From: a virus
Length of the DNA stretch: 64,000 bases
Reading direction: 5' to 3' (one strand)
Virus record (IMG/VR): IMGVR_UViG_3300027801_000011
Location: 32,001 to 96,000 of that record
This document shows, in pieces, positions 1-64,000 of this stretch. The translations under genes and the position numbers were made by a program. The number at the start of each line of letters is the position of its first letter. Within the stretch, counting starts at the first letter, position 1. Below the pieces are notes generated by a model. It did not search any database. It was given only the letters and a program-made list of their open reading frames with translations, and had not been told where the DNA came from.

Positions 1-1
1 G

Positions 2-865
2 ATCAATTTAGATAATGCACAGAATAAGGCTATTGTTTTTGGTAATGGTGAATCTAGAAAGTGGTGTGAAGGCAACCAGCATAATTGGAAAGATATACCT
101 ACATGGGGTTGTAATGCTATCTATCGTGACTTCTGGGTAGACAACTTAGTGGCTGTAGACTATGCCATGCAACAGGAAATATACACTTCTGATCTACTAG
201 AAGAGCAACACGATTCTGATGATGTTGAGCAGGGGTCAATGAAGTTTCACTTTGCTAACTGGAATCCTATTCCTGCTGAGATTGCAGATATGATGTTCAT
301 GGGACAAGACGTTCCAGAGGAATTTATCCATAGGACTCCTAGAAGTGGCAACCACACAGAGCAGTGTGTAGTGTCTGGTAAGGAACCTAGTAAGATACAG
401 GAGAGCATCGAATCGATGATCAAGCAGTTCCCCGATCTTGATGAGTTAGACCTAATGCTCAAAATGGGGAAGGATGTGGGTGTTTGGATCACCTATCTAA
501 GAGACGTTGATTTTGTTAAATCAATAGACTTCCCTGTGGGGTGGTCTGCTGGTAATACAGCCCTACATCTTGCATGTCAAGAAGGGCCAAAAGAAGTATA
601 CATGTTGGGATTTGACTTGTCATCATATGACGAGCCTCTAAACAACATATATAAGGGGTCAGATAACTATCTGCCCAGTGATGCAAAAGGTTTTAACACA
701 ATCAATTGGTTTAACCAGATGCAAACAGTGTTCAGCGAGTTTAAGGATATTACCTTTAATTGGGTAGACCCTATTCATCGTGCTGGAGAGATATCTAATG
801 TTAATAATAATAACATAAGGTACTTGACAAAAGAAGAACTCTGTGGTATATTACATATACGATAA
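2..865 (+). CDS. DUF115/MAF_flag10-like (sialyltransferase-fold) protein, 5'-truncated by window edge
   Basis: Frame is open from nt 2 (..AIVFGNGESR..TWGCNAIYRD..); WSAGNTALHLA and VYMLGFD motifs; lies directly upstream of gp32. Confidence 0.6.
   Translation: MNLDNAQNKAIVFGNGESRKWCEGNQHNWKDIPTWGCNAIYRDFWVDNLVAVDYAMQQEIYTSDLLEEQHDSDDVEQGSMKFHFANWNPIPAEIADMMFMGQDVPEEFIHRTPRSGNHTEQCVVSGKEPSKIQESIESMIKQFPDLDELDLMLKMGKDVGVWITYLRDVDFVKSIDFPVGWSAGNTALHLACQEGPKEVYMLGFDLSSYDEPLNNIYKGSDNYLPSDAKGFNTINWFNQMQTVFSEFKDITFNWVDPIHRAGEISNVNNNNIRYLTKEELCGILHIR
824..852 (+). promoter_or_regulatory. sigma70-type promoter for gp32
   Basis: (C)TTGACA-N17-TATATT; AAGGAG SD before ATG 899. Confidence 0.75.
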
Positions 866-898
866 CAAAAAAGCATATATTTACATAAGGAGATACAT

Positions 899-1789
899 AT
901 GTCGTTAAGTACACTAAAGAAGTCCAATTCTTTGGACAAACTGCTCGGTGCAGTCCAAGCAGAGAACGCCCCCCAAGAGAAGAAATCCTACGTGGATGAT
1001 CGTATCTGGAAGCCAGTAATGGATAAGACAGGTAACGGTTATGCCGTAATTCGTTTTCTACCAGCAGTCGATGGTGAAGATATGCCATGGGCAAAGGTTT
1101 GGAACCATGCGTTTCAAGGCCCTACTGGTCAGTGGTATATTGAGAACTCTCTCACTACCATCAATCAGAACGATCCAGTATCAGAATTGAATTCTAATTT
1201 CTGGAACTCTGGAGTAGAATCTGATAAGGAAATCGCTCGTAAGCAGAAGCGTAAGTTGCAATACTTCGCTAATATCTTGGTAGTTCAAGATAAGGCTAAT
1301 CCTGCCAATGAAGGTAAAGTTATGCTTTATCGTTTTGGTAAGAAAATCTTTGATAAGTGCATGGAAGCAATGCAACCAGCATTTGAAGATGAGACTCCTA
1401 TGAATCCTTTTGATTTCTGGGAAGGTGCAGACTTCAAGTTGAAGTTACGTAAGGTTGAAGGTTATTGGAACTATGATAAGTCAGAGTTCGCTGATCCATC
1501 ACCTGTCTTTGATAATGATGAAGAGATTGAAGCACTGTGGAAGAAGCAGTATCCGCTTTCGGAGTTTACTTCTGCTTCCAACTTCAAGTCTTATGATGAG
1601 TTGAAGACTCGTATGGAGACAGTCTTGTCTGGAACTACTAGTGTTAGTAAGGCTGCTGAGATGATGGTTGCAGAACCATCTACTACAGTTACAGTTGATA
1701 CTGTTGCTGTTCCTGCTCCGTCTGTGTCTGCTTCATCTGATGATGAGGACACTATGTCCTACTTTGAAAAACTTGCAGATAAGGGGTAA
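899..1789 (+). CDS. gp32: T4-like single-stranded DNA-binding protein
   Basis: DKTGNGYAVIRFLPA, WYIENSLTT, FGKKIFDK, NPFDFWEGADFKLK, acidic tail ..MSYFEKLA. Confidence 0.97.
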   Translation: MSLSTLKKSNSLDKLLGAVQAENAPQEKKSYVDDRIWKPVMDKTGNGYAVIRFLPAVDGEDMPWAKVWNHAFQGPTGQWYIENSLTTINQNDPVSELNSNFWNSGVESDKEIARKQKRKLQYFANILVVQDKANPANEGKVMLYRFGKKIFDKCMEAMQPAFEDETPMNPFDFWEGADFKLKLRKVEGYWNYDKSEFADPSPVFDNDEEIEALWKKQYPLSEFTSASNFKSYDELKTRMETVLSGTTSVSKAAEMMVAEPSTTVTVDTVAVPAPSVSASSDDEDTMSYFEKLADKG

Positions 1790-1796
1790 TCTGATA

Positions 1797-2983: not shown

Positions 2984-5191
2984 TCAGCCCTGGCTGAATC
3001 TAGCATGTCCTTGCGCTGTAACTTGTACCTGAGTTTTTTTGTTTATAACGGTGTTGCTAGTGTTAAATTGACCACCACCACCACTTGCTGCACCTAGCAT
3101 CGCCACGGTAAGAGCGTCTATAGATTTTGTTAATTTCTCATTCCAAAGCGAATCACCAGTACTTGCACCATCACTTGGTGCTTCCACGGCGGGTGGAGCA
3201 CCAGGCATCGTTGTTTCCATACCAAGAGATGCTCTCAAGGTAGCTACATTTTTTGATGCCTCAGTGAACTTAATTTCTGGACTTGCTAAACCTTTAAGTT
3301 TTGATCCAGAACTAAACCAACCTTTACCTACCGTACCACCCATAATTGCTACTTCTAGGGCGGGGATAGATTTCATTAAATCTCCTGTAAATCTAGATAT
3401 TGACATTCTTGTCGTACCAAGACTACCTAATTTTGCGAACTCTTGTAATGCTTGTACATTCTTCTTGACCTTTAAAGGATCAATGTCTTTTTTAGCAAAT
3501 GTCTCTAGGTCGGTCATAGGGTCACGATCTTTTGTGAATATACTACCTATACCTGTCATGAGATTACCAATCATATCTCCAAATGTGGTTGGGATTTTAA
3601 GTCCAGTTAAACCACTCATTGCTGTAACATATGCTTTAATACCTTCTCCATTCGATTTGATTTTTACTACCTCTGCGTCTGTCACAGTTGTTTTAGCAAA
3701 CATCTTTAAATCATCTAGTGGGCTCTTAACCTTACCACCAAACATTTTTGTCAATCCATCAAATGCTCCACCAAGCATATTAAATACTGAACCTAATGCT
3801 TTACCACCACTACCAGCAGCGCCGGCTGCCATGGCACCAGCAAATGCAACCATCGCTTCAGCATTGGCCTTTATCTTAACTACATCGATACCTGTAGCTG
3901 CACTTAATTTCTGCATACCCAATATTTGGGCATCTAATACACCCTTACCACCAATTGCTTTACTAACTCCATCCATAATCTCAGAAACTGTATTGCCCGC
4001 ACTAGCAATGGCCTTTCCAACACTACCAACAGCGCCGGCTGCCATGGCACCAGAAAATGCAAGAGCAGCACCAGCAAAGATCAGAATCTTATCTTTGGAA
4101 ATACCTTGCGCTGCACTGATCTTTTGCATACCCGATATTTGGGCATCTAATACACCCTTACCACCAACTGCTTTACTAACGCCGTCTAGTACTGAACTAA
4201 CTGTATTAGCAAGTGCCGCAACAGCTTTCATACCCATCGCAGCAGCGCCGAGTGCCATTGCTTTAAGATATTCCATCATTGCTTCGGCGTTGTTTATAAC
4301 ACCCTCTTTGTTTACAACTGCAAGACCAAATTTTTGCATTGCTTCTAACGGTGGTACTCCACCTATAAGTTTACCAAGTCCACCAATAGCTCCAGATGCA
4401 AGAGTACCAACAGCAGCAAGGGTAGTTCCACCAGCACCCAGCGCCATGGCGCCACCGTATGCAACCATTGCTTCAGCGTTACTTTTAATGTTTTTAGCGT
4501 CCAGTTTAACCGCACCAAACTTCTCCATCTTTTTGAATAAAGTATCTTCCGATGCCTCAACACCAAATAATTTACCAATACCATCAGCGGCAGCACCAAT
4601 CAGATTACCAACTGCTCCCATTGCTCCACCAAAACCTTGGGCGCCTAGGCCAAGACCCATAGCACCCATACCGATACCAACTTCTTCAAGTTTCTTACCA
4701 TCTAAGACTTCAAACCCCTTCATTCCTGCTATAATAGTAGGGAAGGCCTTGGTGTATAGGGCCATACCAAGAACAAGTGGCGCCATAAATGCGGCGATAC
4801 CAACACCTAAACCACCCATGACCAAAATGAATGGGCCAATAGAAGCGACACCAGCAGCCATGCCAGTCATAAATCCACTTACTAGTCTACCTATTCCAGA
4901 ACCAATACCACCTACTGCTTTAGCAATAGATGCGAATATTCCACCAGACTTTTTATCACCAGAGGATTCTGAACCGGCGTCTGGGATTGATCCCATAGCT
5001 GCAGCAATGGTTGAAAGGTATGCGTTATTCTCTTTCGCCATCTGGTTGCCTTCACGCTTCTCTTCAGCGGAGGCAGAACCCTTACTTTTAGTTGACCTTG
5101 CTAATATCATAGCAGCTTTGTCTAATTTAGTTGCAGTATTAGCTAATTTGTCTATGGTGTCACTAAATTTTTTAGTATTGTCATCAGCCAT
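2984..5191 (-). CDS. tape-measure-like protein (gp29 position)
   Basis: 735 aa Ala/Gly-rich helical protein with ~71-aa repeats (GGKGVLDAQI twice) and a hydrophobic segment; downstream of gp26/gp51. Confidence 0.65.
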   Translation of the reverse strand: MADDNTKKFSDTIDKLANTATKLDKAAMILARSTKSKGSASAEEKREGNQMAKENNAYLSTIAAAMGSIPDAGSESSGDKKSGGIFASIAKAVGGIGSGIGRLVSGFMTGMAAGVASIGPFILVMGGLGVGIAAFMAPLVLGMALYTKAFPTIIAGMKGFEVLDGKKLEEVGIGMGAMGLGLGAQGFGGAMGAVGNLIGAAADGIGKLFGVEASEDTLFKKMEKFGAVKLDAKNIKSNAEAMVAYGGAMALGAGGTTLAAVGTLASGAIGGLGKLIGGVPPLEAMQKFGLAVVNKEGVINNAEAMMEYLKAMALGAAAMGMKAVAALANTVSSVLDGVSKAVGGKGVLDAQISGMQKISAAQGISKDKILIFAGAALAFSGAMAAGAVGSVGKAIASAGNTVSEIMDGVSKAIGGKGVLDAQILGMQKLSAATGIDVVKIKANAEAMVAFAGAMAAGAAGSGGKALGSVFNMLGGAFDGLTKMFGGKVKSPLDDLKMFAKTTVTDAEVVKIKSNGEGIKAYVTAMSGLTGLKIPTTFGDMIGNLMTGIGSIFTKDRDPMTDLETFAKKDIDPLKVKKNVQALQEFAKLGSLGTTRMSISRFTGDLMKSIPALEVAIMGGTVGKGWFSSGSKLKGLASPEIKFTEASKNVATLRASLGMETTMPGAPPAVEAPSDGASTGDSLWNEKLTKSIDALTVAMLGAASGGGGQFNTSNTVINKKTQVQVTAQGHARFSQG
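3912..4183. repeat. internal ~59-bp near-identical direct repeat, 213-bp period
   Basis: TGCATACCC(A/G)ATATTTGGGCATCTAATACACCCTTACCACCAA(T/C)TGCTTTACTAAC at 3912 and 4125. Confidence 0.85.
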
Positions 5192-5487
5192 TATTTGCTA
5201 TCCTTCTTTCCACCAGAACCAACATAAAGACCAAACCATGCGGCTCCTGCTCCTACAATGACACTTACAAATGCACTTTGAGGAGCAGTAGGTTCTGGGA
5301 TTGCCATGAACCATTCTGTAGTACGCCAGAACATGATACCATATAGAGTAATCAATGCCCTGGGCCAAATACGCCATTTGTCGATAACGGAAGAACTGAT
5401 ATGATTATACCATGAGGTTTCTTCTACTTCAGTAGTGCTACGATCCACTTCAACAATTGTGATAGGATCAGATTTTCTACTTGCCAT
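5191..5487 (-). CDS. small two-TM membrane protein
   Basis: KWRIWPRALITLYGIMFW and SAFVSVIVGAGAAWFGLYV hydrophobic segments. Confidence 0.75.
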   Translation of the reverse strand: MASRKSDPITIVEVDRSTTEVEETSWYNHISSSVIDKWRIWPRALITLYGIMFWRTTEWFMAIPEPTAPQSAFVSVIVGAGAAWFGLYVGSGGKKDSK

Positions 5488-11937: not shown

Positions 11938-12589
11938 AGGGGTGTACGACAAAAATATCTTTAAAGCAGTCTTCCTCGCTGGTGGGCCTGGTAGCGGCAA
12001 ATCTTATGTCGTTGGCCAGACCACTGGTGGGTTGGGCCTTAAAGTAGTCAATTCAGATGATAATTTTGAAAGACTATTAGATAAGGCAGGGCTGACTAAG
12101 AAGATGGATACTAAACGAGGTGAACGTGAGGCAGAAAAAAGAGATGTCGTGCGGGATCAGGCTAAGAGTATCACTGATAAACAGAAGAACACCTATGTTG
12201 ATGGTCGCCTTGGGTTGATCATTGATGGTACTGGACATGACTTTGAAAAGATTAACAGGATGTCTTCGAAACTGAGGATGTTAGGATATGAGACATATAT
12301 GGTCTTTGTTAACACTTCTCTAGACGTTGCACTACAATCCAATGCAGAAAGAGACAGAGTTGTACCTAGTGCTATTGTTGCTAAGTCCCATAAAGCAGTG
12401 CAGTCTAATCTAGGTAAATTCAGTAATCATTTCAGAGGCAATCTAGTCATCGTGGACAATAACGACAGAACACAGGAACCTATTAAGCTAGCCACTAAAC
12501 AGGTTAGACGTTTGCTTAAGAAACCAGTAAACACCTCAATATCAAAGAATTGGATCGCTGGTGAGATGGAGAAGAAAAGAGCTAAATAA
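11903..12589 (+). CDS. zeta-toxin-like P-loop kinase
   Basis: AVFLAGGPGSGKS Walker A, VNSD, LIIDGTG, MVFVNTSLDVAL, VDN. Confidence 0.75.
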   Translation: MKRYHELLPLLEGVYDKNIFKAVFLAGGPGSGKSYVVGQTTGGLGLKVVNSDDNFERLLDKAGLTKKMDTKRGEREAEKRDVVRDQAKSITDKQKNTYVDGRLGLIIDGTGHDFEKINRMSSKLRMLGYETYMVFVNTSLDVALQSNAERDRVVPSAIVAKSHKAVQSNLGKFSNHFRGNLVIVDNNDRTQEPIKLATKQVRRLLKKPVNTSISKNWIAGEMEKKRAK

Positions 12590-13152
12590 TGAATTTTTGG
12601 GAAACTCTTGACTCTTGGGCAGACAACGATCTAACAGACCTACTTCATGATCACGTAGACAATCACGCCACCATGCTCTCTGAGTGTGAGGCGTTTGAGC
12701 ATTGGACACGGGTAGATGAAAACTATGGATTCTGGACACCAGATTCAATAAAGAACCATATCAAAGGCATTGCACCTAATATCGCCAAGTCATCACCACA
12801 TGGCCCTTGGGATAGGTGGTTTGCTATGCCCACAGAAGAAGACTTCCCCACACTACACAAATACCTCTATTCACACAGTGAATACAAGAACCCCATCATA
12901 TCTAAGCTTGGCCCAGGAGCTCAACTAGCTCCCCATTCACATCCTAAACAAAAAATGCTTTATAATATGTCGATTAACTACCCAGAAGGGTGTCAATTTG
13001 CGGTGTATCCTACAGGACTTATACCATATAAGGCAGGAGATGTGTATAAAATCAAGGTTCAGCAGGAACATGCGGTATATAACCGCTCTAATAGTGACAG
13101 ATATCATGTTCAAATAGCAGATGTTGCAGATATGTCACGCATCTTCAGATAA
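12589..13152 (+). CDS. Asp/Asn beta-hydroxylase-like 2OG-Fe(II) oxygenase
   Basis: LGPGAQLAPHSH..EHAVYNRSNSDRYH double-stranded beta-helix motifs. Confidence 0.7.
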   Translation: MNFWETLDSWADNDLTDLLHDHVDNHATMLSECEAFEHWTRVDENYGFWTPDSIKNHIKGIAPNIAKSSPHGPWDRWFAMPTEEDFPTLHKYLYSHSEYKNPIISKLGPGAQLAPHSHPKQKMLYNMSINYPEGCQFAVYPTGLIPYKAGDVYKIKVQQEHAVYNRSNSDRYHVQIADVADMSRIFR

Positions 13153-16872: not shown

Positions 16873-17190
16873 ATGGACATCAAGAGCAAGTACACATACG
16901 TGACTAACAATAAGGATGAGACTCAATGTATTGGACTCACGCCTGAAGCTAGTACATTCCAAGGTGTAATATACAAATACGGCAAGGTGTCAGCACCTAA
17001 CCCAGATGAATTAAATTCAGAAGGGGACTTGCCTTTACGGTTCGACTATGATATAGTAGATAATAATTCGCTTCCAGAAGAATGGTTGAGAAGCGATGAA
17101 TTTCATACACTCATTGGTGATATCCTTGTGGATATTATGGATGAACAACTAACTAAAGGAACATTGAATTTTGCCAACACAGACGATTGA
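16873..17190 (+). CDS. conserved T4-like hypothetical protein upstream of gp41
   Basis: GVIYKYGKV..LRFDYDI..F..LIGDILVDI; AGGAG SD. Confidence 0.75.
   Translation: MDIKSKYTYVTNNKDETQCIGLTPEASTFQGVIYKYGKVSAPNPDELNSEGDLPLRFDYDIVDNNSLPEEWLRSDEFHTLIGDILVDIMDEQLTKGTLNFANTDD
17029..17057 (+). promoter_or_regulatory. internal sigma70 promoter for helicase
   Basis: CTTGCCT-N17-TATAGT. Confidence 0.5.
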
Positions 17191-18565
17191 ACGAACGACT
17201 TTAAGTCAACTAGTATATAATGAAGAATATGCACGTAAGGTGCTTCCCCATATGAAGGCAGACTATTTCTCAGACAGGACTGAGAAGATCGTGTATCAAG
17301 AGATACAGAAGTTTGTAGAACGATACAATGCCCTACCTACCAAAGAAACCCTTGAGATAGAGATTGACACACGCCGTGATCTGAATGAAGATGACGTTAA
17401 GCGTGTGCTATTGGTGGTCAAGGACTTAGACCCAGATAAGGATGTCAATTTTGAGTGGTTGGTAGAGACTACTGAGAAATTCTGTAAAGACAAGGCTGTG
17501 TATAATGCCATTGTCGAGGGCATATCCATCATTGATGGCAAGGATAAGGATAGGTCAGCAGATGCTATACCTACCATATTGACAGATGCCCTTGCTGTGG
17601 GATTTGACAATAGAGTGGGCCATGATTATCTGCAAGATGCAGAAGAGCGTTTTGATTACTACCACACGATAGAAGAGAAGATACCATTTGATCTGGAATT
17701 CTTTAATAAGATCACGAAGGGTGGACTACCACCTAAGACATTGAACATTGCCCTCGCTGGTACAGGTGTAGGTAAATCGTTGTTTATGTGTCACGTTGCT
17801 GCCAATTGTATGACACAGGGAAAGAATGTCCTGTATATCACACTAGAGATGGCAGAAGAACGTATCGCTGAACGTATAGATGCCAATCTCATGAACATAT
17901 CAATGGAAGACTTACATGATCTACCTAAGACCATGTTTGATTCTAAGATTGGTCGTATCATGAAGAATACCACAGGTCAGCTCATTGTCAAGGAATACCC
18001 TACTGCTGCTGCCCATACAAATCATTTTCGTGGACTGCTTAAGGAATTAGCAGTCAAGAAATCATTTAAACCAGACATCATATTCATAGATTATCTGAAT
18101 ATTTGTGCATCATCACGACTCAAGGGAGCAGCGAATGTCAATTCTTACACGTATATTAAATCAATTGCAGAGGAACTTAGGGGACTTGCTGTTGAGACTA
18201 ACGTACCGATTATGTCTGCTACACAGACTACAAGGTCGGGGTTCTCTAACTCAGACGTTGGGTTGGAAGACACAAGTGAAAGTTTTGGACTTCCTGCTAC
18301 AGCAGACCTCATGTTTGCTCTTATTAGTAACGAAGAGCTTGACGCTCTCAATCAGATCGCAGTTAAACAGTTAAAGAATAGGTATAATGACCCAACTGCC
18401 AATAAGAGATTTGTGATTGGCATAGATCGTGCCAAGATGCGACTCTATGATGTGAAGTTGACTGAACAGGAAGGTATACTGGATGCTAATCTAACTGGTG
18501 ATGTACCAGATGCATTTAGTGAACCAGTATTCGATAAAACAGATTTCGGTGGATTCAAGGTATGA
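17171..18565 (+). CDS. gp41: DnaB-like replicative helicase
   Basis: LAGTGVGKSL, ITLEMAEERIAERIDAN, IFIDYLNIC, SESFGLPATAD, QLKNRY. Confidence 0.97.
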   Translation: MPTQTIERTTLSQLVYNEEYARKVLPHMKADYFSDRTEKIVYQEIQKFVERYNALPTKETLEIEIDTRRDLNEDDVKRVLLVVKDLDPDKDVNFEWLVETTEKFCKDKAVYNAIVEGISIIDGKDKDRSADAIPTILTDALAVGFDNRVGHDYLQDAEERFDYYHTIEEKIPFDLEFFNKITKGGLPPKTLNIALAGTGVGKSLFMCHVAANCMTQGKNVLYITLEMAEERIAERIDANLMNISMEDLHDLPKTMFDSKIGRIMKNTTGQLIVKEYPTAAAHTNHFRGLLKELAVKKSFKPDIIFIDYLNICASSRLKGAANVNSYTYIKSIAEELRGLAVETNVPIMSATQTTRSGFSNSDVGLEDTSESFGLPATADLMFALISNEELDALNQIAVKQLKNRYNDPTANKRFVIGIDRAKMRLYDVKLTEQEGILDANLTGDVPDAFSEPVFDKTDFGGFKV

Positions 18566-18574
18566 GGTTGCCCT

Positions 18575-19816: not shown

Positions 19817-19821
19817 GCTTC

Positions 19822-19870: not shown

Positions 19871-20074
19871 ATGCCAGATAGATACGGAGAAAATACAAGA
19901 GAATGGATGATCATGTATAGTGATATAGAGATGGATAAAGAGTGGCATACGACTGCCTGTATAGGGGTTTGCACGCTCGAGGATGACGTATGCATAGGGT
20001 GTAATAGGACTATGGATGAGATTAGAGAAGCGTATATAGAGAGTATGCGGAGAGATTCCCATATAATCCCATAG
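19871..20074 (+). CDS. DUF1289-like small Cys-rich protein (start may be 19931)
   Basis: CIGVCTL..CIGCNRTMDEI. Confidence 0.65.
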   Translation: MPDRYGENTREWMIMYSDIEMDKEWHTTACIGVCTLEDDVCIGCNRTMDEIREAYIESMRRDSHIIP

Positions 20075-48258: not shown

Positions 48259-49599
48259 GTGATGAATATACTAGGGATATCTGAGGGATTTCATGATGCA
48301 AGCGTGTGTTTAATCAGAGGTCACACTATTGTACATGCTTCCCATGCTGAGAGATACAGCGGAGTCAAAAACGACAAATGGGTACATCCTTCCCAATGGC
48401 CTGTTTCAGATCGCAATCAACCAGACATAGTTGCATACTATGAGAAACCTTTTCGTAAAAACCTAAGACGTTTGTATGCTGGACAATCCTGGCAAACCCC
48501 CAGAGTTAATTATGACTTTAATTACGGACACCATGAATCTCATGCGGCCGCTGGGTATTATACGTCACCCTTCAATGAATGTAATATTCTAGTTATCGAT
48601 GCTATCGGTGAATGGGATACTATTTCTATATGGAAGGCAAAAGATGATAAGATGACTAAGTTGCAGTCATGGAAATATCCGTATTCTCTTGGCCTCCTCT
48701 ATTCTGCAATCACCCAACGTATAGGACTAAAACCCAACGAAGATGAATATATCACGATGGGGATGTCTGCTTATGGAGAACCCAAGTATAATTTAGAAGA
48801 TCAACTGTGGGAGAACAATCATAAGGGATGTGGAGACATATACCCAAAAGCCACCTCAGAAGACCTGGCAGCATCCGTTCAGCTGCTCTATGAGAGGGAG
48901 TTACTTAAACTTGTGGACTTATGTCCCAGTGAAAATCTAGTAATTATGGGAGGGTGTGCTTTAAATTGTGCAGCTAATTCTAAGATAAAAGGAAAGAATA
49001 TCTGGATCATGCCCGCCCCTGGCGATGCTGGTTCTGCTATTGGGGCAGCGGCCTTAGTTCTAAAGACAAAACTAAAGTGGCGAAATCCTTATCTTGGTTA
49101 TCCTATAATGCAAGGTTTACATTTGAACGAAATAATAGAAACATTAGAAACAAATAAGATTGTTGGTATTGCAAATGGTAGGGCAGAGTTTGGGCCCAGG
49201 GCATTAGGTAATCGATCTCTTCTTGCTGATCCACGATATGATATAAAGGATACTGTGAATAAGATCAAACGCAGACAGTTGTTTCGTCCTTTCGCACCAG
49301 CAATTCTGGAAGAGTATGCAGACGAATACTTTGAGGGCCCTATGAATGAGTACATGCAATTTGTCGCAAAAGCAAAGCATGACTATAGTTCTGTTACTCA
49401 TGTTGATGGCACTGCCAGAGTGCAAGTAGTGAAGAAAAATTGTGGTTCACAAATAAGACAAATATTAGAGGTGTGGTATGAAAAGACAGGATGTCCTATG
49501 TTACTCAATACCTCTTTAAATATTAAAGGCAAACCTATGGTTAATACGTGGGAAGACGCCCAACAATGGAGTAAGTTATATAATGTCCCTGTTTTCTAA
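48259..49599 (+). CDS. CmcH/NodU-family carbamoyltransferase
   Basis: ILGISEGFHDAS, HHESHAA, DAIGEWDT, GGCALNC, EFGPRALGNRS, FRPFAP, HVDGTARVQ, LLNTSLN. Confidence 0.95.
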   Translation: MMNILGISEGFHDASVCLIRGHTIVHASHAERYSGVKNDKWVHPSQWPVSDRNQPDIVAYYEKPFRKNLRRLYAGQSWQTPRVNYDFNYGHHESHAAAGYYTSPFNECNILVIDAIGEWDTISIWKAKDDKMTKLQSWKYPYSLGLLYSAITQRIGLKPNEDEYITMGMSAYGEPKYNLEDQLWENNHKGCGDIYPKATSEDLAASVQLLYERELLKLVDLCPSENLVIMGGCALNCAANSKIKGKNIWIMPAPGDAGSAIGAAALVLKTKLKWRNPYLGYPIMQGLHLNEIIETLETNKIVGIANGRAEFGPRALGNRSLLADPRYDIKDTVNKIKRRQLFRPFAPAILEEYADEYFEGPMNEYMQFVAKAKHDYSSVTHVDGTARVQVVKKNCGSQIRQILEVWYEKTGCPMLLNTSLNIKGKPMVNTWEDAQQWSKLYNVPVF

Positions 49600-50389: not shown

Positions 50390-50537
50390 ACTATTCTTAT
50401 CTGGATTTAAAAGGCAGAATAATAAAGAAGAAGCTGGATTCATATATGAATTTGATGATAAGAGATTTAAAGACCTTACACAAGAAGAACAGGGGATACA
50501 GGTTCAGAAAAACTGGAACAGGTATATGAAGAAATGA
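50364..50537 (+). CDS. small FIY-motif protein typical of carbamoyltransferase loci
   Basis: MKKYILKLKLF..AGFIYE. Confidence 0.6.
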   Translation: MKKYILKLKLFLSGFKRQNNKEEAGFIYEFDDKRFKDLTQEEQGIQVQKNWNRYMKK

Positions 50538-53341: not shown

Positions 53342-54587
53342 GCTTAAAGACTTGGAGTGGTTCTGTCCTCAGCCGTTCATGAACACTGTGATGAATCACG
53401 ATCTTATTCCAAAGGCATGTTGTGTGCTAAAGCAGTGGCCTGGAAATGAAATACGTGAAACTGGTAAGACATCTATTATGGAAGTTCATAATTCAGATTT
53501 TATGAAAGATTTCCGTAAAGAATTCTTAAACGGTGGCGGGCCAATATCTGATAAATTGTGCATGGTCTGTAAGGAACAAGAAAAACATTCCTCCACAGAA
53601 AGTCATCGACTAACGTATCTAGATAAGTTTGATGAAGAACATGGAGAGTATAGAGAACATCTAGAGGCTCTTGAGGAGTACATTGATACAGACCAAAGCG
53701 ATTCTATGTATTTGACGTTTGAATATAATGCTCCTAATAACTTCTGCAACCTCAAATGTAACATGTGTTCCCCCATGAATTCATCTACATACGCCAAAGA
53801 GAATAAAGCAATAGGTGTTTCTAATGGAGCTCTAAGGGATGAGACTTGGATCAATCTTGAAGATGATATGTCAAGATATGAGGATGTGCTTAAAAACCTT
53901 ATAGAATTGAAACTAGTTGGTGGTGAGACACTTGCTCTTCCTCAAAACTATGCGATGATGGATAAAGCAATAGAGATGGGCGTGTCTAAACAAATGAGAC
54001 TTGTTATGACTACAAATGCAACGCTGACTCCGAAGATGGGTAAGCATGGCGATGTGTTTGATTATGTCCCATACTTTAAAGATTGTCAAATGAATATCTC
54101 TATAGAATTTTGGGGAGAGAAGAATAACTATCTACGGTTCCCATCTAAATGGGAAAAGATTATGAAGAATGTTAAAAAGTTTGCTAAGATGCCCAGAACT
54201 AGGATACTATTTGCTACCTGTGTTAGTTCTCTAACGATAGGATATCTACACGAAGTAGCTATAGCTGTTGATGCTCTGATAGAAAAAGAACCACACATTT
54301 ACAATAGTTTTGCAACTGGCAGTTTGGTTATTGGTGGAACCAACTTATATACTGTAACAGCAATCCCAGAGGGAATTAGAGAAGAGTATCTTGAGACAAT
54401 TTATAGTCGTGCTCCCCGAAACCATGCTCCCACATTCTTGAAACTGGCCAACTATCTAACAGAGATGCCTTTTGATCAAGACCTACATAATAGAATGATG
54501 ATTGACGTAGCTAAGCGTGATAAATTTCGAGGAACCGTGTTGACAGATTTGTTCCCAGAGTGGAAACCATATTATGAAAAACTTTGA
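53334..54587 (+). CDS. radical SAM protein with N-terminal SPASM/twitch-like domain
   Basis: CNLKCNMC, LVGGE, TTNAT; N-terminal CPQPF..CC..C..C. Confidence 0.88.
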   Translation: MSKLKDLEWFCPQPFMNTVMNHDLIPKACCVLKQWPGNEIRETGKTSIMEVHNSDFMKDFRKEFLNGGGPISDKLCMVCKEQEKHSSTESHRLTYLDKFDEEHGEYREHLEALEEYIDTDQSDSMYLTFEYNAPNNFCNLKCNMCSPMNSSTYAKENKAIGVSNGALRDETWINLEDDMSRYEDVLKNLIELKLVGGETLALPQNYAMMDKAIEMGVSKQMRLVMTTNATLTPKMGKHGDVFDYVPYFKDCQMNISIEFWGEKNNYLRFPSKWEKIMKNVKKFAKMPRTRILFATCVSSLTIGYLHEVAIAVDALIEKEPHIYNSFATGSLVIGGTNLYTVTAIPEGIREEYLETIYSRAPRNHAPTFLKLANYLTEMPFDQDLHNRMMIDVAKRDKFRGTVLTDLFPEWKPYYEKL

Positions 54588-56148
54588 TGAGTTTGGCAAT
54601 GTAATAGTTGGGCGGGACGTAATGCCCTTCCGGCATCACGCCCTTGAACTATCAATTGTAGAACCATTTTTGGCATTTAAAGCTCTGTGGGAAAAAGAAA
54701 CCAAAGACATCAAAAATAAAAAAGAGTTAGAACACTTATTATTTGTAGTTGTATATCCAGACAAGTTGAAGTGGGCGTTTCATATTGAGAAACAACTACA
54801 AACAACTACAATACAAACCTCAGGCGGTGTCACTGGCGCTGGTACTGGTCACAATCAAATATTGTGTCTAGAGAGTGAACTCCATAATACCCTACAAAAC
54901 TCTAAAGCCTCCCATGCGATGATAGTAACGGTGGGTATGGTCTTTAATATGACTAAAGTAAATACTTCTATAACAAGATTTTATGAATTTGCAGAGACAG
55001 ACGTATACGCTAGAGGTCATATTATAGCCCGCCCAGAAGATAAGGCATATCTACATCATCAACATATAGAGATAAACTTAAACCAGTGGAAAGGTTTAGG
55101 ATCACCTAAAGTATATGAGAGGTGGCCTGTGTTTGAAAGATCAGAAGAAAACTTTCATGATGATTATACTCCACATTGGATTCTGCCTAAAGATCGCCCA
55201 TTGATTAATAACTTTACAGACGAAGAACGAAAAAATAAACATTTTGCATATCATATGGCGAACAGAAAAGATATACAGGAAATAAATTGGAGAGCGATGA
55301 CACCACAGTTGCCAGACTATTGGTGGAAAAGTGCCGCAACTTTTAAGCATACACCTAAAGGAAGAGGGTTCTATGGTTGGCGTCAAAGGGTGGATAGGAG
55401 TGATCCTTATTTTGATATCTTGATGAACAGGATGACTGAGGTTTTTTACGCTGAAAATACTGAAGAAGTTGGCCAACTCCCAACTGATAAATTTGATTTA
55501 ATTATTACACCAACAGCTGGTTATAGTGGAGAAGTGTTTGCTGAAAAACTAGATTTCGATGGAGAAATTATATTCTATGATTATTGTCATGAAAATGTTG
55601 AGATCAAAAAATCGATTGTTGATATGAATATGAGTCTTGATGAGATATCTATTTTGAAAAAGTATTGGAGTAAGGGCGTGGGTAATCGCAAAAATGGTAA
55701 AACTAGAACCCATATGATTACGTTTAATTCCAATCAACTTTCTAATGGCAAGGAACTTAAAAAACGATCTGAGACTTTTGGAACTTGGGAAGAACTACAA
55801 GCCCTACAAGGTAAAATGTCTGATAACTATAAAGTTGATTTTTGGTTGATGGATTTGGTGTGTATGTCTGATCCCGATTGGTATCGGCCGACCAATATTT
55901 ACTCAGATCACTCCGACATACACAACAAATCGGGATATACAACAACTGAGAATTTTATAGATAAGATAAAGGGGAAGCGTGTGTTTATGGATTGTAGTAA
56001 TATTTTCGGATATCATATAGTACATGCTTGTTGGTCTTTATCTCAACTAGTTGAAAGTTATGAAAGACTTGTTAAACTGCTACAAGAGAACACCGAATAT
56101 TTCTACTTAAAGGGAACTCGGCCCGGCAAACAGAAAATAAGAATATGA
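54574..56148 (+). CDS. hypothetical protein
   Basis: 524 aa, coupled to neighbours; GHI..YLHHQ..INL, RSEENFHDDYTPHW. Confidence 0.75.
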   Translation: MKNFDEFGNVIVGRDVMPFRHHALELSIVEPFLAFKALWEKETKDIKNKKELEHLLFVVVYPDKLKWAFHIEKQLQTTTIQTSGGVTGAGTGHNQILCLESELHNTLQNSKASHAMIVTVGMVFNMTKVNTSITRFYEFAETDVYARGHIIARPEDKAYLHHQHIEINLNQWKGLGSPKVYERWPVFERSEENFHDDYTPHWILPKDRPLINNFTDEERKNKHFAYHMANRKDIQEINWRAMTPQLPDYWWKSAATFKHTPKGRGFYGWRQRVDRSDPYFDILMNRMTEVFYAENTEEVGQLPTDKFDLIITPTAGYSGEVFAEKLDFDGEIIFYDYCHENVEIKKSIVDMNMSLDEISILKKYWSKGVGNRKNGKTRTHMITFNSNQLSNGKELKKRSETFGTWEELQALQGKMSDNYKVDFWLMDLVCMSDPDWYRPTNIYSDHSDIHNKSGYTTTENFIDKIKGKRVFMDCSNIFGYHIVHACWSLSQLVESYERLVKLLQENTEYFYLKGTRPGKQKIRI

Positions 56149-56849
56149 AGATATTAGCATTAAGAATTGGTGATAAGTATGGCCCAGAGTATGAAGACTA
56201 TTTGAATAAAAAACTATCCAAATATGACATACATTGGATGCATGAGCCGTATGATGAAAGAGTTACCTTACAGTGGAATAAGATGTGGGGTATGCAGTTG
56301 GATCAAAATGAGCCTATTTGTGTCATGGACATAGATGTTCTTCTCATGGGCGACTACGAAAGAATATTTGACTATCCTATTATGCGTGGACAATTCCTTG
56401 CAATGCCTGGCTGGTGGAGAGACACAAAGAAAGAAGGTTACTCTATCAACGGTGGATTCTTTAAGTACTATCCGAAGGACTGTAAGTATATCTACGATAA
56501 GTTTATGAAAGATATACACGGGTGGCAGAGACACTACATTGATAATGGGGTTACAAAAGGCCCTGTTAATGGAGAGCAGTACTTTGTCGAAGACTCAGTA
56601 TTACAAAAATTAGAACTTATCACATTACCCAAAGAATGGTTTACTCGCTGGGTTGTAGACTCCGATATTGTAGGTAGGAGTATGACTACATGGCAAGTAC
56701 AGATCACACGTAAGTATCGGGAGATAACAGGGAACGACTATATATTCCTTGGTGGTGAGTTTCATCCAGATATCAAATTCGTACACTTCACACACAGAAA
56801 TAACAAGCCTCATGAATGGGAATACTATGAACAAATTCGTTTACGTTAG
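56145..56849 (+). CDS. GT-A glycosyltransferase-like paralog
   Basis: LRIGDKYGPEYE, WNKM, MDIDV (DxD), INGGF, GEQ.FV, VHF. Confidence 0.75.
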   Translation: MKILALRIGDKYGPEYEDYLNKKLSKYDIHWMHEPYDERVTLQWNKMWGMQLDQNEPICVMDIDVLLMGDYERIFDYPIMRGQFLAMPGWWRDTKKEGYSINGGFFKYYPKDCKYIYDKFMKDIHGWQRHYIDNGVTKGPVNGEQYFVEDSVLQKLELITLPKEWFTRWVVDSDIVGRSMTTWQVQITRKYREITGNDYIFLGGEFHPDIKFVHFTHRNNKPHEWEYYEQIRLR

Positions 56850-57990
56850 TCATGAGTTTCGTACTCTATATCAGAGTATGTACTTCAAGAATACTCAGAA
56901 GGTCTGGGATACTTCTTGGGTAGATGAAGACTTTAAAGAACAACTTGAATTTAAACTTCAAGAAGAACAACATATGCTTAGAAAATACACAAGGCCTCAT
57001 ACTGCATACCTTAATGATATAGAAGGTGAGACTGAGCTTGTATTCAACATGAGTATGAAACATTTTGGTGAGCCCCAGAAATATGAATGGACTGCTGATC
57101 TGACAGAGAAATTTACAGACCTTCTTATGGAAAAAGCGATATCTATTAGAGACAAGGGTAGAAAAATTCAAGTATTATATTCTGGAGGAATTGACAGTTC
57201 TGCAGCACTACTTGCTTTATATGAGGTTTGTCCTAAAGATCAGATTGAAGTTGTCATGGGAAGAACTGGCGAAGGTGGTGCTGGTTTTAGAGCTAAAGAT
57301 CAGACTGATCCTGTAAAGCAAAATCCTTGGATGTTTGATAATATTGTAAAACATTTGGATCACACATTCACTGATGATTTAAATGGTTACTGTGATCCTA
57401 GCAAATATGTGTTTGTCACAGGCAATGAAGCAGATCGTTTATTCGGGTCTACTGGTTATACTCTAATGACTCAATACTCTAAACCAGATGGTGCTGATTA
57501 CCAAGAACATTGGGGAAAGGCTCCAACTGATGAACTTGATGAAAATTGGCAATGGAACCAAAACAGGTGGTGGGGTATAACTAGGTACACATATCTTATG
57601 CAATCTTTTCGTATGATGGCAAACATTTCATGTGATAAGATTGATATGGACAACTACCAGCCCATGTTCTTTGATAGAAAGATGTTACAATTTGCTATCA
57701 ATCTACATATCCAAAAGAAACATAAGTGGTACAACTGTGGAGCCTTAGCAGATGAGAAGAAATTTAGAGATGGAAAGATGTGGATACGTGACGCTATATT
57801 TGATATAACTAAAAATAGTTGGGTATCATATAACATGCATAAGACTATTTCATCTGCAACTGATCTTAATAAAAGGCAGTCTGTTCCTCTGCCATTGCGC
57901 TTGAAGGTGTTAGCAATAACAGAAGATGGTACAGTTGTTAATAGAAAAAATTTAATGGAATATGTCTGTAGGGAGTCTTTTACGATATGA
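56827..57990 (+). CDS. asparagine-synthetase-like PP-loop ATP pyrophosphatase, copy 1
   Basis: VLYSGGIDSS and TGNEADRLFG. Confidence 0.7.
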   Translation: MNKFVYVSHEFRTLYQSMYFKNTQKVWDTSWVDEDFKEQLEFKLQEEQHMLRKYTRPHTAYLNDIEGETELVFNMSMKHFGEPQKYEWTADLTEKFTDLLMEKAISIRDKGRKIQVLYSGGIDSSAALLALYEVCPKDQIEVVMGRTGEGGAGFRAKDQTDPVKQNPWMFDNIVKHLDHTFTDDLNGYCDPSKYVFVTGNEADRLFGSTGYTLMTQYSKPDGADYQEHWGKAPTDELDENWQWNQNRWWGITRYTYLMQSFRMMANISCDKIDMDNYQPMFFDRKMLQFAINLHIQKKHKWYNCGALADEKKFRDGKMWIRDAIFDITKNSWVSYNMHKTISSATDLNKRQSVPLPLRLKVLAITEDGTVVNRKNLMEYVCRESFTI

Positions 57991-59132
57991 AAAAATTCTG
58001 CTATGTAAGTAATGATTTCAAAAATGCTTGGAGAATATTTTTTGCCAATAAGAAGATGTTATGGGATACCTCTTGGGTAGACGAATCTGTTTTGAAGAGA
58101 TTCTTTGAACTTTATAATAAAGAGAATTCTGATCTGAAGAAGTACTCTCGCCCAGCTAACTGGTATCTTAATGACCTAGAACAAAAGGATACTTATTTGT
58201 TTCCTATGGCACAATCACATTTTAACGGTGCTGGCCAGAAGTATGAATATACAGAGGGGTTGCCTTCTCTTAAAGATATCTTATTAGAGAGAGCCGCTGA
58301 TATAAGGGATCAAGGAAAACCTATTGAAATATTGTATTCTGGTGGGATAGATAGTTCAGCTGTAGTTCTTGCTTTTAATGAAGTATGTCCCAAAGATCAG
58401 CTGAAGATTTGGATGGCAGGAGATCATTGCATTACCAACAACAAAAATCTTTTTGATAAAATTGTTAGTAATTTGGAATGGGAAATGACAACAAATCTAA
58501 ATGGTTGTTGTGACCCTAGTAAAAATGTATTCACATCTGGTAATGAAGCAGATAGATTGTTTGGTGCTGATGGTTACACTCAAATGATGGGACACTCAAA
58601 ACGAGATGAGAATAGTAAGAACGGATATAAGATACTAGGGCCAAATGAACCACCCACTACAGATCATCCAGACAACTGGCAGTGGAACCAAGACCGATGG
58701 TGGGGTATTACTAGTCACACATATCTAACACAGTCTTGGAGAATGTTACGTAATGTTGAATGTGATAAAATAGTTATGGATAATTTCCAGCCTTTGTTTT
58801 TTGATAAAAGAATATTACAGTATGCTATAAACATCCATATGGATGGAGAAATGAAGTGGTACAACTCTGGTCTATTGGCTGACCCTCAGAGATACAAAGA
58901 GGGCAAGATTTGGGTAAGAAATTTTGTTTATGAAATGTCGGGCGATAAAGAATATTCTTATAATATCGGTAAGACATTAACTACTGTATCAGATATAAAT
59001 GAAATGTTTAAGTTACCACTGGCTCCAGACTTTAATGTTCTTGGTGTTATGGACGATGGTACTGTTGTAAATAGAGACAATATGATGGAATATATGACCA
59101 AAGAACACACATTGTTCTCTAATGCTATATAA
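57987..59132 (+). CDS. asparagine-synthetase-like PP-loop ATP pyrophosphatase, copy 2
   Basis: ILYSGGIDSS, SGNEADRLFG; shares WDTSWVDE and NWQWNQ.RWWGIT with copy 1. Confidence 0.7.
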   Translation: MKKFCYVSNDFKNAWRIFFANKKMLWDTSWVDESVLKRFFELYNKENSDLKKYSRPANWYLNDLEQKDTYLFPMAQSHFNGAGQKYEYTEGLPSLKDILLERAADIRDQGKPIEILYSGGIDSSAVVLAFNEVCPKDQLKIWMAGDHCITNNKNLFDKIVSNLEWEMTTNLNGCCDPSKNVFTSGNEADRLFGADGYTQMMGHSKRDENSKNGYKILGPNEPPTTDHPDNWQWNQDRWWGITSHTYLTQSWRMLRNVECDKIVMDNFQPLFFDKRILQYAINIHMDGEMKWYNSGLLADPQRYKEGKIWVRNFVYEMSGDKEYSYNIGKTLTTVSDINEMFKLPLAPDFNVLGVMDDGTVVNRDNMMEYMTKEHTLFSNAI

Positions 59133-61701: not shown

Positions 61702-62175
61702 ATGAAAGTTATTGAATCTACATTCGAGGAAGTGTTTCCTGTCTGGCGTGACAGACTGTGGCCCAATAGGATTAGTGCAATTGAACCTATGAGTAGTCTG
61801 TGCTGGAGGCAACCAAAAGATATAATAAAGGACAGTTCGATATTCGATAAGTATGTCCCCAGTTTCTTTGCTTTGAAGATAGATGATGAAATTGTTGGAG
61901 TGAATAGTGGATTTAAAACAAGTGAGAAAGTTTATCGTTCTAGAGGATTGTGGGTAAGTGAACAACATAGAGGTAGGGGATTTGGCCAACTTCTTTTGTT
62001 ACAAGCAATAGTTCAAGGTAAAAGCGAAGACTGTCATTGGATATGGAGTATGCCACGAAAAACCGCTTTGGGGTCTTACGAGAAGGTAGGATTCAAAAAA
62101 AGAGGTAAGTGGATAGACCAAAAGGTAGAATTTGGGCCCAATTGTCTGGCTACCCGCCAGATAATATATAAATAG
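61702..62175 (+). CDS. GNAT acetyltransferase
   Basis: IVGVNSG, RSRGLWV...RGRGFG, WSMPR..A...YEKVGF; start reset to 61702. Confidence 0.85.
   Translation: MKVIESTFEEVFPVWRDRLWPNRISAIEPMSSLCWRQPKDIIKDSSIFDKYVPSFFALKIDDEIVGVNSGFKTSEKVYRSRGLWVSEQHRGRGFGQLLLLQAIVQGKSEDCHWIWSMPRKTALGSYEKVGFKKRGKWIDQKVEFGPNCLATRQIIYK
62167..62174 (+). promoter_or_regulatory. T4 late promoter for neck genes
   Basis: TATAAATA overlapping GNAT end. Confidence 0.75.
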
Positions 62176-62192
62176 AGGACAGGAGATAGTAT

Positions 62193-63011
62193 ATGGCCAT
62201 TCCAACAAGTAAGACTACTTTCAAAGAATACTGCTTACGCTCATTGGGTGATGGTGTTATTGATATTAACATATCAGATGCCCAAGCGGATGATCGAATT
62301 GATGAAGCGATTCAGTATTTCTCTCAATATCACTATGAGGGAATTGAAAGGATGTACTTAAAACATCTTATCACACAAGCAGATGTAACTAGAGCTACAT
62401 CTAACACAGCATCAACTGGAACCGATCCAGCAGATGACACTATTACTGCGAGTTGGTTAGAAGGTGGAAACTATATTCCTCTGCCAACTTCTGTCATTTC
62501 TGTCGTTCAAGTATTTCCTCTTACTGGTACTGGTACTGGGGCAAACATGTTTGATGCCCGTTATCAGTTACACCTAAACGAATTGTTTGATCTCTCATCT
62601 ACATCTGTTATTCAGTATGAGATGATGAAGAACAACCTAGATTTCCTAGAACACATTCTCATTGGTGAAGCACCTATCAGATTTAACCAACATCAAAATC
62701 GTTTATATATTGATGCCGATTGGTCTACTGATTTTGTTGCTGGTCAAGACTACATTGTTATTGAGTGTTTCCGAAAACTAGACCCAGCAACATTTACAAA
62801 TGTGTATGATGATGTTCTACTGAAACGATATGCGACTGCTCTTATTAAGAAACAATGGGGTGCAAACCTATCTAAGTTTAGTGGCGTTGCAATGCTAGGT
62901 GGTGTTACCATGAACGGTGAAACCATTTACTCCCAAGCGCTTGAGGAGATTACCAAGTTAGAGGAAACAATCTTCTTACACGAACCTCCAATACTTATGG
63001 CGGTAGGATAA
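62193..63011 (+). CDS. gp13: neck protein
   Basis: KEYCLR.LG..VI.IN, DRIDEA.QYF..YH, RFN...NRLYID, LKRYATALIKKQWG.NL.KF.GV.M.GGVT.NG. Confidence 0.95.
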   Translation: MAIPTSKTTFKEYCLRSLGDGVIDINISDAQADDRIDEAIQYFSQYHYEGIERMYLKHLITQADVTRATSNTASTGTDPADDTITASWLEGGNYIPLPTSVISVVQVFPLTGTGTGANMFDARYQLHLNELFDLSSTSVIQYEMMKNNLDFLEHILIGEAPIRFNQHQNRLYIDADWSTDFVAGQDYIVIECFRKLDPATFTNVYDDVLLKRYATALIKKQWGANLSKFSGVAMLGGVTMNGETIYSQALEEITKLEETIFLHEPPILMAVG

Positions 63012-63014
63012 AAA

Positions 63015-64000
63015 ATGGCCGTAAATAAACACTTTCACACCAGTGGGCGGACTGCTGTTACGTCAGAACAGAATCTATATGCTAACCTTGTATCTGAAGC
63101 AATTCAAATCCACGGGCATGATGTGTATTATCTAGATCGTACTCTTGTTGCAGAAGACACTGTGTTTGGTGAAGATTCTCTATCTAAGTTTCAAACACAG
63201 GTTCCTATAGAAATGTATATGGAAGACAATCAATCTGGATTTGCTGGCCAGCAAGAATTGATGAGCCAATTTGGTTTACAGAATTTGAGTGAGGCAACCT
63301 TTGTCGTAAGTAAGAATCGTTTTCAAGATAAGACTAAACAGATTACAATAGAGAGTGGAACAGACACTTCTTCATCTGGAGCAATTGAGATGGAGAGTGG
63401 AACGCTAACAACGCTAGACGGCGGGTTTCTTATTTCAGAGGCAGATGTTTCTGATTCCGACAGACCCCTAGAAGGCGATGCAATCTACCACCCTATCTTA
63501 AAGAAATTATTTGAGATCAACTTTGTGGATCATGACGATCCTTTCAATCAATTAGACAACAACCCTGTATATAAAATGCGTTGTCGTTTATATGAATACA
63601 GTTCAGAAGCACTGGATACTGGTATATCTGCAATTGATGCTATCGAAGATGCCTTGTCTACTGACACCCTTGGTTATCAAATTTCATTAGAACAAACTAC
63701 TGCTCAGAATGAACCATTCAGATTAGAATTATTTGCTGATAATGGTTTGATTGCAGATGAGGATGGCGATAATATTATAGGTGAGGATGACTCAACTTCA
63801 GTTGGTGAGAGTATTCTTATGGAACACAATATCGATACTGGTCATGGAGGCTGGTTAATTTCAGAGGACTATATAATAGGAACAGGTGGTGTAAACACTA
63901 ATAGTGTAGATAAGTCTGCACAAAATGAATTATTTGACGAATTGGATGATACGATCTTAGACTTCTCTGAGAAAAATCCATTCGGTGATGCTGGGAGTAG
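63015..64000 (+). CDS. gp14: neck protein (3' end at window edge) with acidic insertions
   Basis: Manual translation: EQNLY.NLV.E.IQIHG.DVYYL.R, FGED..SKF, IEMY, RPLEGD.IY.P, LFEI.FV.H..PF.QL, LDFSEKNPFG. Confidence 0.9.
   Translation, partial: MAVNKHFHTSGRTAVTSEQNLYANLVSEAIQIHGHDVYYLDRTLVAEDTVFGEDSLSKFQTQVPIEMYMEDNQSGFAGQQELMSQFGLQNLSEATFVVSKNRFQDKTKQITIESGTDTSSSGAIEMESGTLTTLDGGFLISEADVSDSDRPLEGDAIYHPILKKLFEINFVDHDDPFNQLDNNPVYKMRCRLYEYSSEALDTGISAIDAIEDALSTDTLGYQISLEQTTAQNEPFRLELFADNGLIADEDGDNIIGEDDSTSVGESILMEHNIDTGHGGWLISEDYIIGTGGVNTNSVDKSAQNELFDELDDTILDFSEKNPFGDAGS

Follow-up and report, generated by a model that had tools for sequence, protein, structure and literature searches.

The DNA of an uncultured marine phage probably carries a protective base modification that is specific for the trinucleotide 5'-GC(C/T)-3' (GCY), as judged from the restriction targets which its genome has lost and from those which it has kept. 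The analyzed stretch of 64,000 nucleotides (the window) comprises positions 32001–96000 of the linear 115,309-bp IMG/VR viral contig IMGVR_UViG_3300027801_000011, for which CheckV estimated a completeness of 64%. Pfam matches identified the contig as part of a T4-like myovirus. Among isolates, Pelagibacter phage Mosig and Methylophilales phage Melnitz come closest, with a major capsid identity of approximately 72%. Restriction targets that begin with C are retained on this DNA when the C is preceded by G, and are otherwise almost completely purged. The type of system is already known; new are the genome-wide footprint of this flank rule, its spread in a clade of abundant marine phages and the fact that it persists in relatives without a recognizable methyltransferase.

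Expected site numbers were derived from 200–300 shuffles in which synonymous codons were permuted within each open reading frame (ORF), so that protein and codon usage were kept. The numbers given below refer to the whole contig unless the window or another genome is mentioned. A target was regarded as flanked when a G stood 5' of its first C on either strand, and as unflanked without such a G. GGWCC did not occur at all, compared to 79 expected sites, and neither did CGCG (65 expected), AACGTT (33), GGTACC (20), GTGCAC (10.7), GACGTC, GTCGAC, CGATCG, GGTCTC or CACGTC. A single RGATCY was found with 103 expected; CTGCAG occurred five times (35 expected) and CGWCG 12 times (79 expected). Unflanked CCWGG was observed four times (61 expected), unflanked CCGG not at all (70 expected) and unflanked TCAGG/CCTGA six times (144 expected). 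The last of these targets is likewise purged from Melnitz unless it is present as GCCTGA. All 60 Gly-Pro pairs used GGC (34) or GGG (26) as the glycine codon, and GGT and GGA together represent 74% of the glycine codons. The window itself contained no GGWCC, and its CCGG (19 of 19), CCATGG (6 of 6) and CCTAGG (2 of 2) sites were all flanked. Among its 38 CCWGG sites 35 were present as GCCWGG or CCWGGC and three were offset (Table 1). A preliminary description of the window had reported the counts or the flanking of these five targets, the Gly-Pro codon choice and the purging of sites; recount and shuffles bore out all three. It had also listed GATC, GAATTC, GTAC and AGCT as not purged, which held for the first three, all at expectation, but not for AGCT (235 observed versus 450 expected). 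GCCTAY/RTAGGC was also rare (8 observed versus 49 expected). We know of no restriction enzyme with a GCCTAY/RTAGGC or TCAGG/CCTGA specificity.

The flank rule was quantified for nine pooled C-initial targets, namely CCWGG, CCGG, CCATGG, CCTAGG, CTGCAG, CTTAAG, CTCGAG, CCTGA and CCGAG. Their unflanked form was found ten times with 366 expected, their flanked form 205 times with 193 expected. Seven palindromes showed a dose-response: 4 sites versus 184 expected without a flank, 93 versus 118 with one flank and 33 versus 17.6 with two flanks, corresponding to observed/expected ratios of 0.02, 0.79 and 1.87, respectively. A 5' G, and with it the context GCT, was present at every surviving CTGCAG (5 of 5), CTTAAG (5 of 5), CTCGAG (3 of 3) and CTCGG (7 of 7). 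For CTGCAG 17.7 unflanked and 17.8 flanked sites were expected and 0 and 5 were observed; for CTTAAG the expectation was 13.9 and 7.3 and the observation again 0 and 5. Arithmetic from the shuffle proportions gives a probability of approximately 1e-5 for the GCT rescue of the three palindromes. Survivors of CCTGA/TCAGG were GCCTGA in 51 of 57 cases, and all 28 CCGAG survivors were GCCGAG or CCGAGC. Sites beginning with CG were not rescued by a 5' G, as seen from the flanked counts of CGCG (0 versus 18 expected), CGATCG (0 versus 3.3) and CGWCG (2 versus 25). An internal GCA (CTGCAG, GTGCAC) or an internal GCG (CGCG) conferred no self-protection. Every palindrome containing GCC/GGC was at or above expectation, with 236 GGCC sites compared to 180 expected, and the like-shaped sites CAGCTG, CATATG, CATG and CTAG, which are not avoided, showed no flank bias.

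Since GCT flanks rescue as well as GCC flanks and GCG flanks do not, the protective context is GC followed by C or T (GpC[C/T]). RGCY (CviJI-type) was rejected as the rescue motif because TGCT contexts rescue. The idea in the preliminary description that overlap with a short motif confers immunity, so that only unprotectable sites are purged, is supported by the dose-response. Its proposed motif GGC/GCC has to be given up in the light of the rescue by GCT and the failure of GCG. The four unflanked CCWGG sites of the contig are all found within GGCCCWGG, and 15 of 37 unflanked sites in relatives have GC at positions −2/−1. Thus, a modified base adjoining the site also seems to be helpful, which hints at a bulky adduct.

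We propose that a post-replicative, sequence-specific base modification would act on the G:C pair of 5'-GC(C/T)-3' (RGC on the opposite strand), the modified position being most simply C5 of the cytosine. A host target with its outermost C in GCY would then contain one modified base inside the site, or two if doubly flanked, and would not be cleaved. Targets unable to overlap GCY (GGWCC, RGATCY, CGCG, AACGTT, GGTACC and others) would have been lost via selection on synonymous codons, and protectable targets would have been retained or turned into their flanked form. The footprint, its motif and its dose-response were read directly from the DNA; for the enzyme we infer by analogy to related phages, with slightly less than even confidence, an SPPC-clade C5-cytosine methyltransferase together with a TET-like 5-methylcytosine dioxygenase. 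Both would be encoded in the unassembled part of the genome, perhaps 15–25 kb in size. Chemistry on cytosine C5 is most likely, rather than a 7-deazaguanine.

This assignment is based on Melnitz and its kin. The gene order in Melnitz is DNA polymerase B, a 405-residue PF00145 methyltransferase, Tet_JBP, two genes of unknown function, a P-loop kinase and MazG, and a contig identical to Melnitz has the same polymerase–methyltransferase–Tet_JBP order. In the Melnitz genome all CCWGG (68 of 68), CCGG (15 of 15), CTGCAG (14 of 14) and CTTAAG (3 of 3) sites are flanked, GGWCC is absent and CGCG occurs once. The Melnitz-type methyltransferase was found at 75–100% identity in 80 IMG/VR loci with a total of 668 kb, that is, in at least 80 related contigs; 145 of 149 CCWGG and 39 of 40 CCATGG sites in these loci are flanked. 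Tet_JBP adjoins the methyltransferase in 53 of the 64 judgeable loci, and the cassette lies in the same replication-gene region in 63 of the 80. Among the genomes of 185,579 bacterial and archaeal species that were searched, none yielded a close homologue of this methyltransferase. Mosig (complete genome, MT647606.1) has no PF00145 gene and does not follow the rule, with only 35 of 125 CCWGG sites flanked, and the rule is not obeyed in loci with a 38%-identical methyltransferase of another clade. In the relative G008 (locus L171) 23 residues with 87% identity to the Melnitz-type methyltransferase around motif I are followed by divergence and a stop (C1:1-147), so that from its sequence the gene looks decayed. 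G008 contains 7 CCWGG sites with 59 expected and does not avoid CCGG and GGWCC; such a loss of CCWGG is the prediction for lost protection under continued restriction. In Mosig GATC is purged to 19 sites, all of them GGATCC, and ACGT does not occur with 422 expected; an annotated adenine methyltransferase adjoins the DNA polymerase there. The GATC pattern of Mosig is an overlap-rescue footprint of the same kind with another motif.

Several findings weigh against the assignment. Profile searches for PF00145, PF12851 (Tet_JBP), PF01555 and PF02086 found none of them in the 115 kb of the contig. An exact-match scan with the contig ends retrieved the metagenome contig Ga0308009_10000330 (37,331 bases). 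Its part L187 (13,313 bases) shares the last 2,191 bases of the phage contig at 99.95% identity and continues for another 11.1 kb with UvsY, UvsW, gp55, gp47 and gp46; methyltransferase and TET were absent from this extension in a tblastn search. Moreover, among 80 polymerase loci sampled without bias, 32 had a methyltransferase match, 30 had none and 18 were not judgeable, yet in the 30 of 62 judgeable loci without the gene CCWGG (76 of 80), CCGG (16 of 16) and CTGCAG (12 of 13) are flanked, at a flanked-site density equal to that of the methyltransferase-bearing loci. The long contigs G001, G002, G006, G010 and G011 obey the rule as well and are devoid of PF00145, PF01555 and PF02086. Jointly they span nearly the whole Melnitz map; consequently, the Melnitz-type methyltransferase is not the universal cause of the footprint. 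AGCT and AGCC/GGCT (280 observed versus 504 expected) are depleted approximately twofold despite containing GCY, which could be due to modification-dependent restriction or to poor modification of AGCY. Finally, the footprint cannot separate modification of C from modification of G on the same base pair, nor does it reveal the chemistry. Depletion of AGCT and AGCC/GGCT was seen in Melnitz and in Synechococcus phage S-B43, too, and hardly in Mosig.

The missing genes may lie in the part of the genome that was not assembled. Contig and extension are colinear with Melnitz 24–136 kb in a translated comparison, and they lack clamp, clamp loader, DNA polymerase, methyltransferase, TET and UvsX, which is the Melnitz block that holds the cassette. 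The unassembled part must contain the replication genes, as these are essential, and with the polymerase region the enzyme of this phage itself escaped our view. The remaining 24 kb of Ga0308009_10000330 probably span the missing region. The far end of the extension matched nothing in the viral or genome collections, and the sole match of the 5' end of the contig was a relative at approximately 72–77% nucleotide identity. On the contig itself, a Methyltransf_23 gene with a weak 2-oxoglutarate (2OG) oxygenase at 6.0–7.9 kb was considered and dismissed, as it showed neither a Tet_JBP signal nor similarity to CmoA. The possibility raised in the preliminary description of GpC-directed C5-methylation combined with hypermodification fits the SPPC-type methyltransferase of the relatives, which usually comes with Tet_JBP; such genes were not found in the 115 kb. 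Overall, the interpretation of the pattern as a modification footprint stands, and the motif and the chemistry favoured at that stage do not.

The relatives without the methyltransferase raise the alternative that another, unrecognized phage enzyme protects GCY. The candidate is a cassette with a DUF4338/DruA-like gene (Table 1), which in many relatives takes the place of methyltransferase and TET directly after the polymerase. The rule holds in G002, G010 and G011 (CCWGG 21 of 21, 20 of 21 and 13 of 13 flanked; CTGCAG 2 of 2, 7 of 7 and 2 of 2), and all three carry this gene abutting the polymerase. The same slot is occupied by a gene for DNA modification in both isolates, namely by the C5-methyltransferase in Melnitz and by the annotated adenine methyltransferase in Mosig. 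Behind the DruA-like gene of G011 lie genes for a 210-residue protein of unknown function, a cytidylyltransferase-like protein and a protein of 449 residues that weakly matches glycosyltransferases. The cultured Pelagibacter phage HTVC008M (KC465899.1) has the DruA-like gene, too, and a search for PF00145, PF01555 and PF02086 found none. Its sites depend on flanks: GATC is GGATC or GATCC in 83 of 83 cases, and GpC flanks are present at 41 of 51 CCGG, 9 of 11 CTGCAG and 21 of 26 CAGCTG sites. HTVC008M cannot show the CCWGG part of the rule because CCWGG is not avoided there. TCGA is also nearly absent from HTVC008M (2 observed versus 441 expected). The Mom protein of phage Mu is a sequence-specific DNA modifier with a GNAT fold, and more than 6000 marine metagenomic homologues of the DUF4338/DruA-like protein were found. 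DUF4338 has been described as a GNAT domain (PMC10853773), and the gene may represent an alternative DNA-modification cassette. Nevertheless, this explanation requires two unrelated enzymes with one trinucleotide specificity, and the DruA-like gene was not found in the contig, its extension or Melnitz. The structure model reached a pLDDT of 53 and was unusable, and Mosig contains a distant DUF4338 protein yet does not follow the rule. We therefore regard it as unlikely, though worth considering, that protection comes from such an enzyme, and equally unlikely that the modifier is the DUF4338 protein, acting by itself or together with the neighbouring cytidylyltransferase and glycosyltransferase; this phage may have the gene in its unassembled part.

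The other explanations appear weaker still. If the cytosine of every GpC were modified, as by M.CviPI or CmoX, GCG and GCA would merely seem unprotected because a modification at these positions leaves enzymes of the CGCG, PstI and ApaLI types unhindered. SpCmoX, the closest solved relative of the Melnitz-type enzyme, accepts GC in all flanks tested, a subclade of the TET-associated methyltransferases has any GpC as its target (PMC8256090), and CACGTG, which offers a GCA context, is flanked in 3 of 3 cases in Melnitz and 6 of 6 in S-B43. The complete loss of CGCG with its internal GpC on both strands, the loss or near loss of flanked CGCG and CGWCG, the purging of CTGCAG and GTGCAC, the substitution of a carboxymethyl-binding residue (see below) and the lack of CmoA or CmoY homologues in contig and Melnitz make this idea quite improbable. 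A host methyltransferase as the source of the protecting modification would explain why the rule is common to relatives with and without a phage methyltransferase. It is well known, though, that orphan host methylation is seldom as fast as T4-like replication. In favour of the host, a type II methylase has also been noted among the genes of the Melnitz host (PMC9004378). With no close relative of the Melnitz-type enzyme in the species genomes searched, with a rule that follows the phage lineage and is absent from Mosig, and with CCWGG purged in G008, whose methyltransferase gene looks decayed, we judge an origin in the host to be very improbable. Insertion of 7-deazaguanine (dPreQ0-type) at GGC by DpdA, as in phage CAjan, had been entertained in the preliminary description. 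A modified G in RGC and a modified C in GCY leave the same footprint, and GGC is one of the two motifs of CAjan, GA and GGC (PMC7544227). AGC/GCT contexts rescue as well, however, and RGATCY is purged though it contains GA, which excludes the GA/GGC pattern of CAjan. TGT/DpdA (PF01702) and QueC (PF06508) were not found in the 115-kb contig, which is incomplete, so that their absence is not final; PF01702 is also absent from the complete genomes of Melnitz, which has the same footprint, and of Mosig. Relatives carry C5-methyltransferase and TET in its place. DpdA chemistry is accordingly hardly credible. The same holds for a rule without any modification, arising from longer recognition sequences of restriction enzymes, codon-pair bias or mutation bias. 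The alanine codons GCT and GCC are indeed common and TGCT is generally enriched, but shuffles preserving protein and codons expect the 366 unflanked sites mentioned above instead of ten, one and the same base rescues nine palindromic and asymmetric targets on either strand with a dose-response, and unavoided sites of like shape are free of flank bias.

A GCY-specific modification can be compared to several described systems. M.CviPI is an orphan C5-methyltransferase of a Chlorella virus which methylates every GpC and protects overlapping sites. The proposed system would likewise shield sites that overlap a GpC target; in contrast to M.CviPI, GCG gives no protection here and GCA probably none. 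In classical restriction-site avoidance of phages, host type II targets are counter-selected unless a phage-borne methyltransferase covers them, examples being the multispecific methyltransferases of the Bacillus phages SPR and phi3T. Counter-selection of uncovered type II targets is common to both cases, but here a three-base motif overlaps the edges of many sites and produces a flank rule instead of site-specific immunity. With CAjan the proposed system shares a short-motif, sequence-specific post-replicative modification that blocks enzymes with overlapping sites; it differs in that GA is not protective, AGC rescues as well as GGC, and DpdA and QueC were not found in the 115 kb. Closer is the SpCmoX/CmoA/CmoY system of S-B43, for which carboxymethylcytosine modification in a GC motif was shown experimentally (PMC12783734; PDB 8YF3). 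SpCmoX, a GC-motif carboxymethyltransferase, is the closest solved homologue of the Melnitz-type methyltransferase (8YF3; E 6e-76; approximately 38–42% identity) and has the SPPC motif in common with it, but the Melnitz-type enzyme contains Leu in place of the carboxymethyl-binding R350. No CmoA or CmoY homologue was detected by tblastn in contig, extension, Melnitz and Mosig. The TET partner of the methyltransferase in relatives points to a methyl, not a carboxymethyl group. S-B43 keeps CCGG (8 of 8) and CACGTG (6 of 6) in GpC-flanked form only and shows the rule at no more than these two targets because CCWGG, unlike in the present phage, is not avoided there; it was therefore rejected as a full positive control. 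The closest likeness is found with the phage modules of C5-methyltransferase and TET dioxygenase. GpC[C/T] is the main measured specificity of the methyltransferases co-occurring with phage TET dioxygenases, according to Burke et al. (2021, PMC8256090), and the GCY motif deduced here equals their consensus; a homologous methyltransferase is encoded by Melnitz and by 80 or more IMG/VR contigs, and restriction evasion is the predicted role. On the other hand, the genes were not seen in the present contig and half of the relatives' polymerase loci bear the footprint without them. Two genes of unknown function and a P-loop kinase lie downstream in Melnitz, whereas the published clusters have glycosyltransferases; a genome-wide restriction-avoidance footprint as found here was not noted in what was consulted of that paper.

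The contig encodes a T4-like gene set with Pfam matches to gp5, gp32, gp59, RNase H, gp23, portal, sheath and large terminase. Further matches are PhoH, ThyX, a class II ribonucleotide reductase, many 2OG-Fe(II) oxygenases and TRAP-transporter genes. The helicase and the DUF6267 gene of the window (Table 1) lie 2–6 kb from the methyltransferase-TET cassette in many relatives, as seen from nucleotide and translated matches to contig 49.2–51.8 kb; in the present contig there is no such cassette beside them (window 17171–20164). Here both genes are located between baseplate modules; their counterparts in Melnitz and many relatives belong to the replication module, close to the polymerase. The order of genes around the replication genes is highly fluid across the clade. 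An island at window 48259–59132, with fibre genes on one side and neck genes on the other, contains a carbamoyltransferase, a radical-SAM protein, an Asp/Arg-hydroxylase-like protein, DUF6071 and several proteins of unknown function, some with at most a faint Asn-synthase match. Its Asn-synthetase-like ligases and the carbamoyltransferase/radical-SAM genes (window 48–59 kb) were considered as a CmoY-type tailoring set and rejected, since no similarity to SpCmoY was found; Mosig has a comparable island without the rule, which also disfavours this role.

Table 1. Positions of the footprint, of surviving sites and of genes discussed in the text (window coordinates unless another contig or genome is named)
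Feature	Position	Strand	Basis
Window-wide footprint: unprotectable targets absent, C-initial targets only with first C in 5'-GC(C/T) on one or both strands	1..64000	.	shuffle counts
CTGCAG survivor, flanked g...c (GCTGCAGC)	4999..5004 (contig 36999)	.	survivor listing
Other CTGCAG survivors, all flanked	10300, 33185, 52057, 57200 (contig 42300, 65185, 84057, 89200)	.	survivor listing
CTTAAG survivor, as GCTTAAG	12515..12520	.	survivor listing
Other CTTAAG survivors, all with preceding G	18038, 39153, 61030	.	survivor listing
CTCGAG survivor, as GCTCGAG	19976..19981	.	survivor listing
Offset CCWGG (atgcCCTGGgcca), GpC one base outside site, GGCCCWGG on minus strand	5359..5363	.	counts
Offset CCWGG (tggcCCAGGagct)	12913..12917	.	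counts
Offset CCWGG (gggcCCAGGgcat)	49196..49200	.	counts
DnaB-like replicative helicase	17171..18565	+	Pfam
DUF6267, after helicase	18575-20164	minus	Pfam
DUF4338/DruA-like gene, ~370 residues (PF14236, E 1e-6), abutting polymerase	G011 L368:10134-11246; G002 31585-32709; G010 26267-27358; HTVC008M 99535-100656		

The flank rule allows a modification motif to be read from sequence alone at single-base resolution, here for a marine phage lineage that is both abundant and uncultured. This motif agrees with a specificity that has so far been known only via heterologous expression, and it provides evidence from nature that GpC[C/T] modification guards against about nine restriction specificities, also where the modified base is confined to one half-site or adjoins the site. 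Flank-dependent survival of purged sites can serve as a cheap metagenome screen for phage modifications and their motifs, and applied to Mosig and HTVC008M this reasoning reveals protection linked to GGATCC or GGATC. The footprint in relatives without the methyltransferase points to an unrecognized enzyme. Should the DUF4338 protein be this modifier, abundant ocean phages would possess sequence-specific enzymes for DNA base modification that form a new family, and DruA of Druantia would gain its first biochemical lead.

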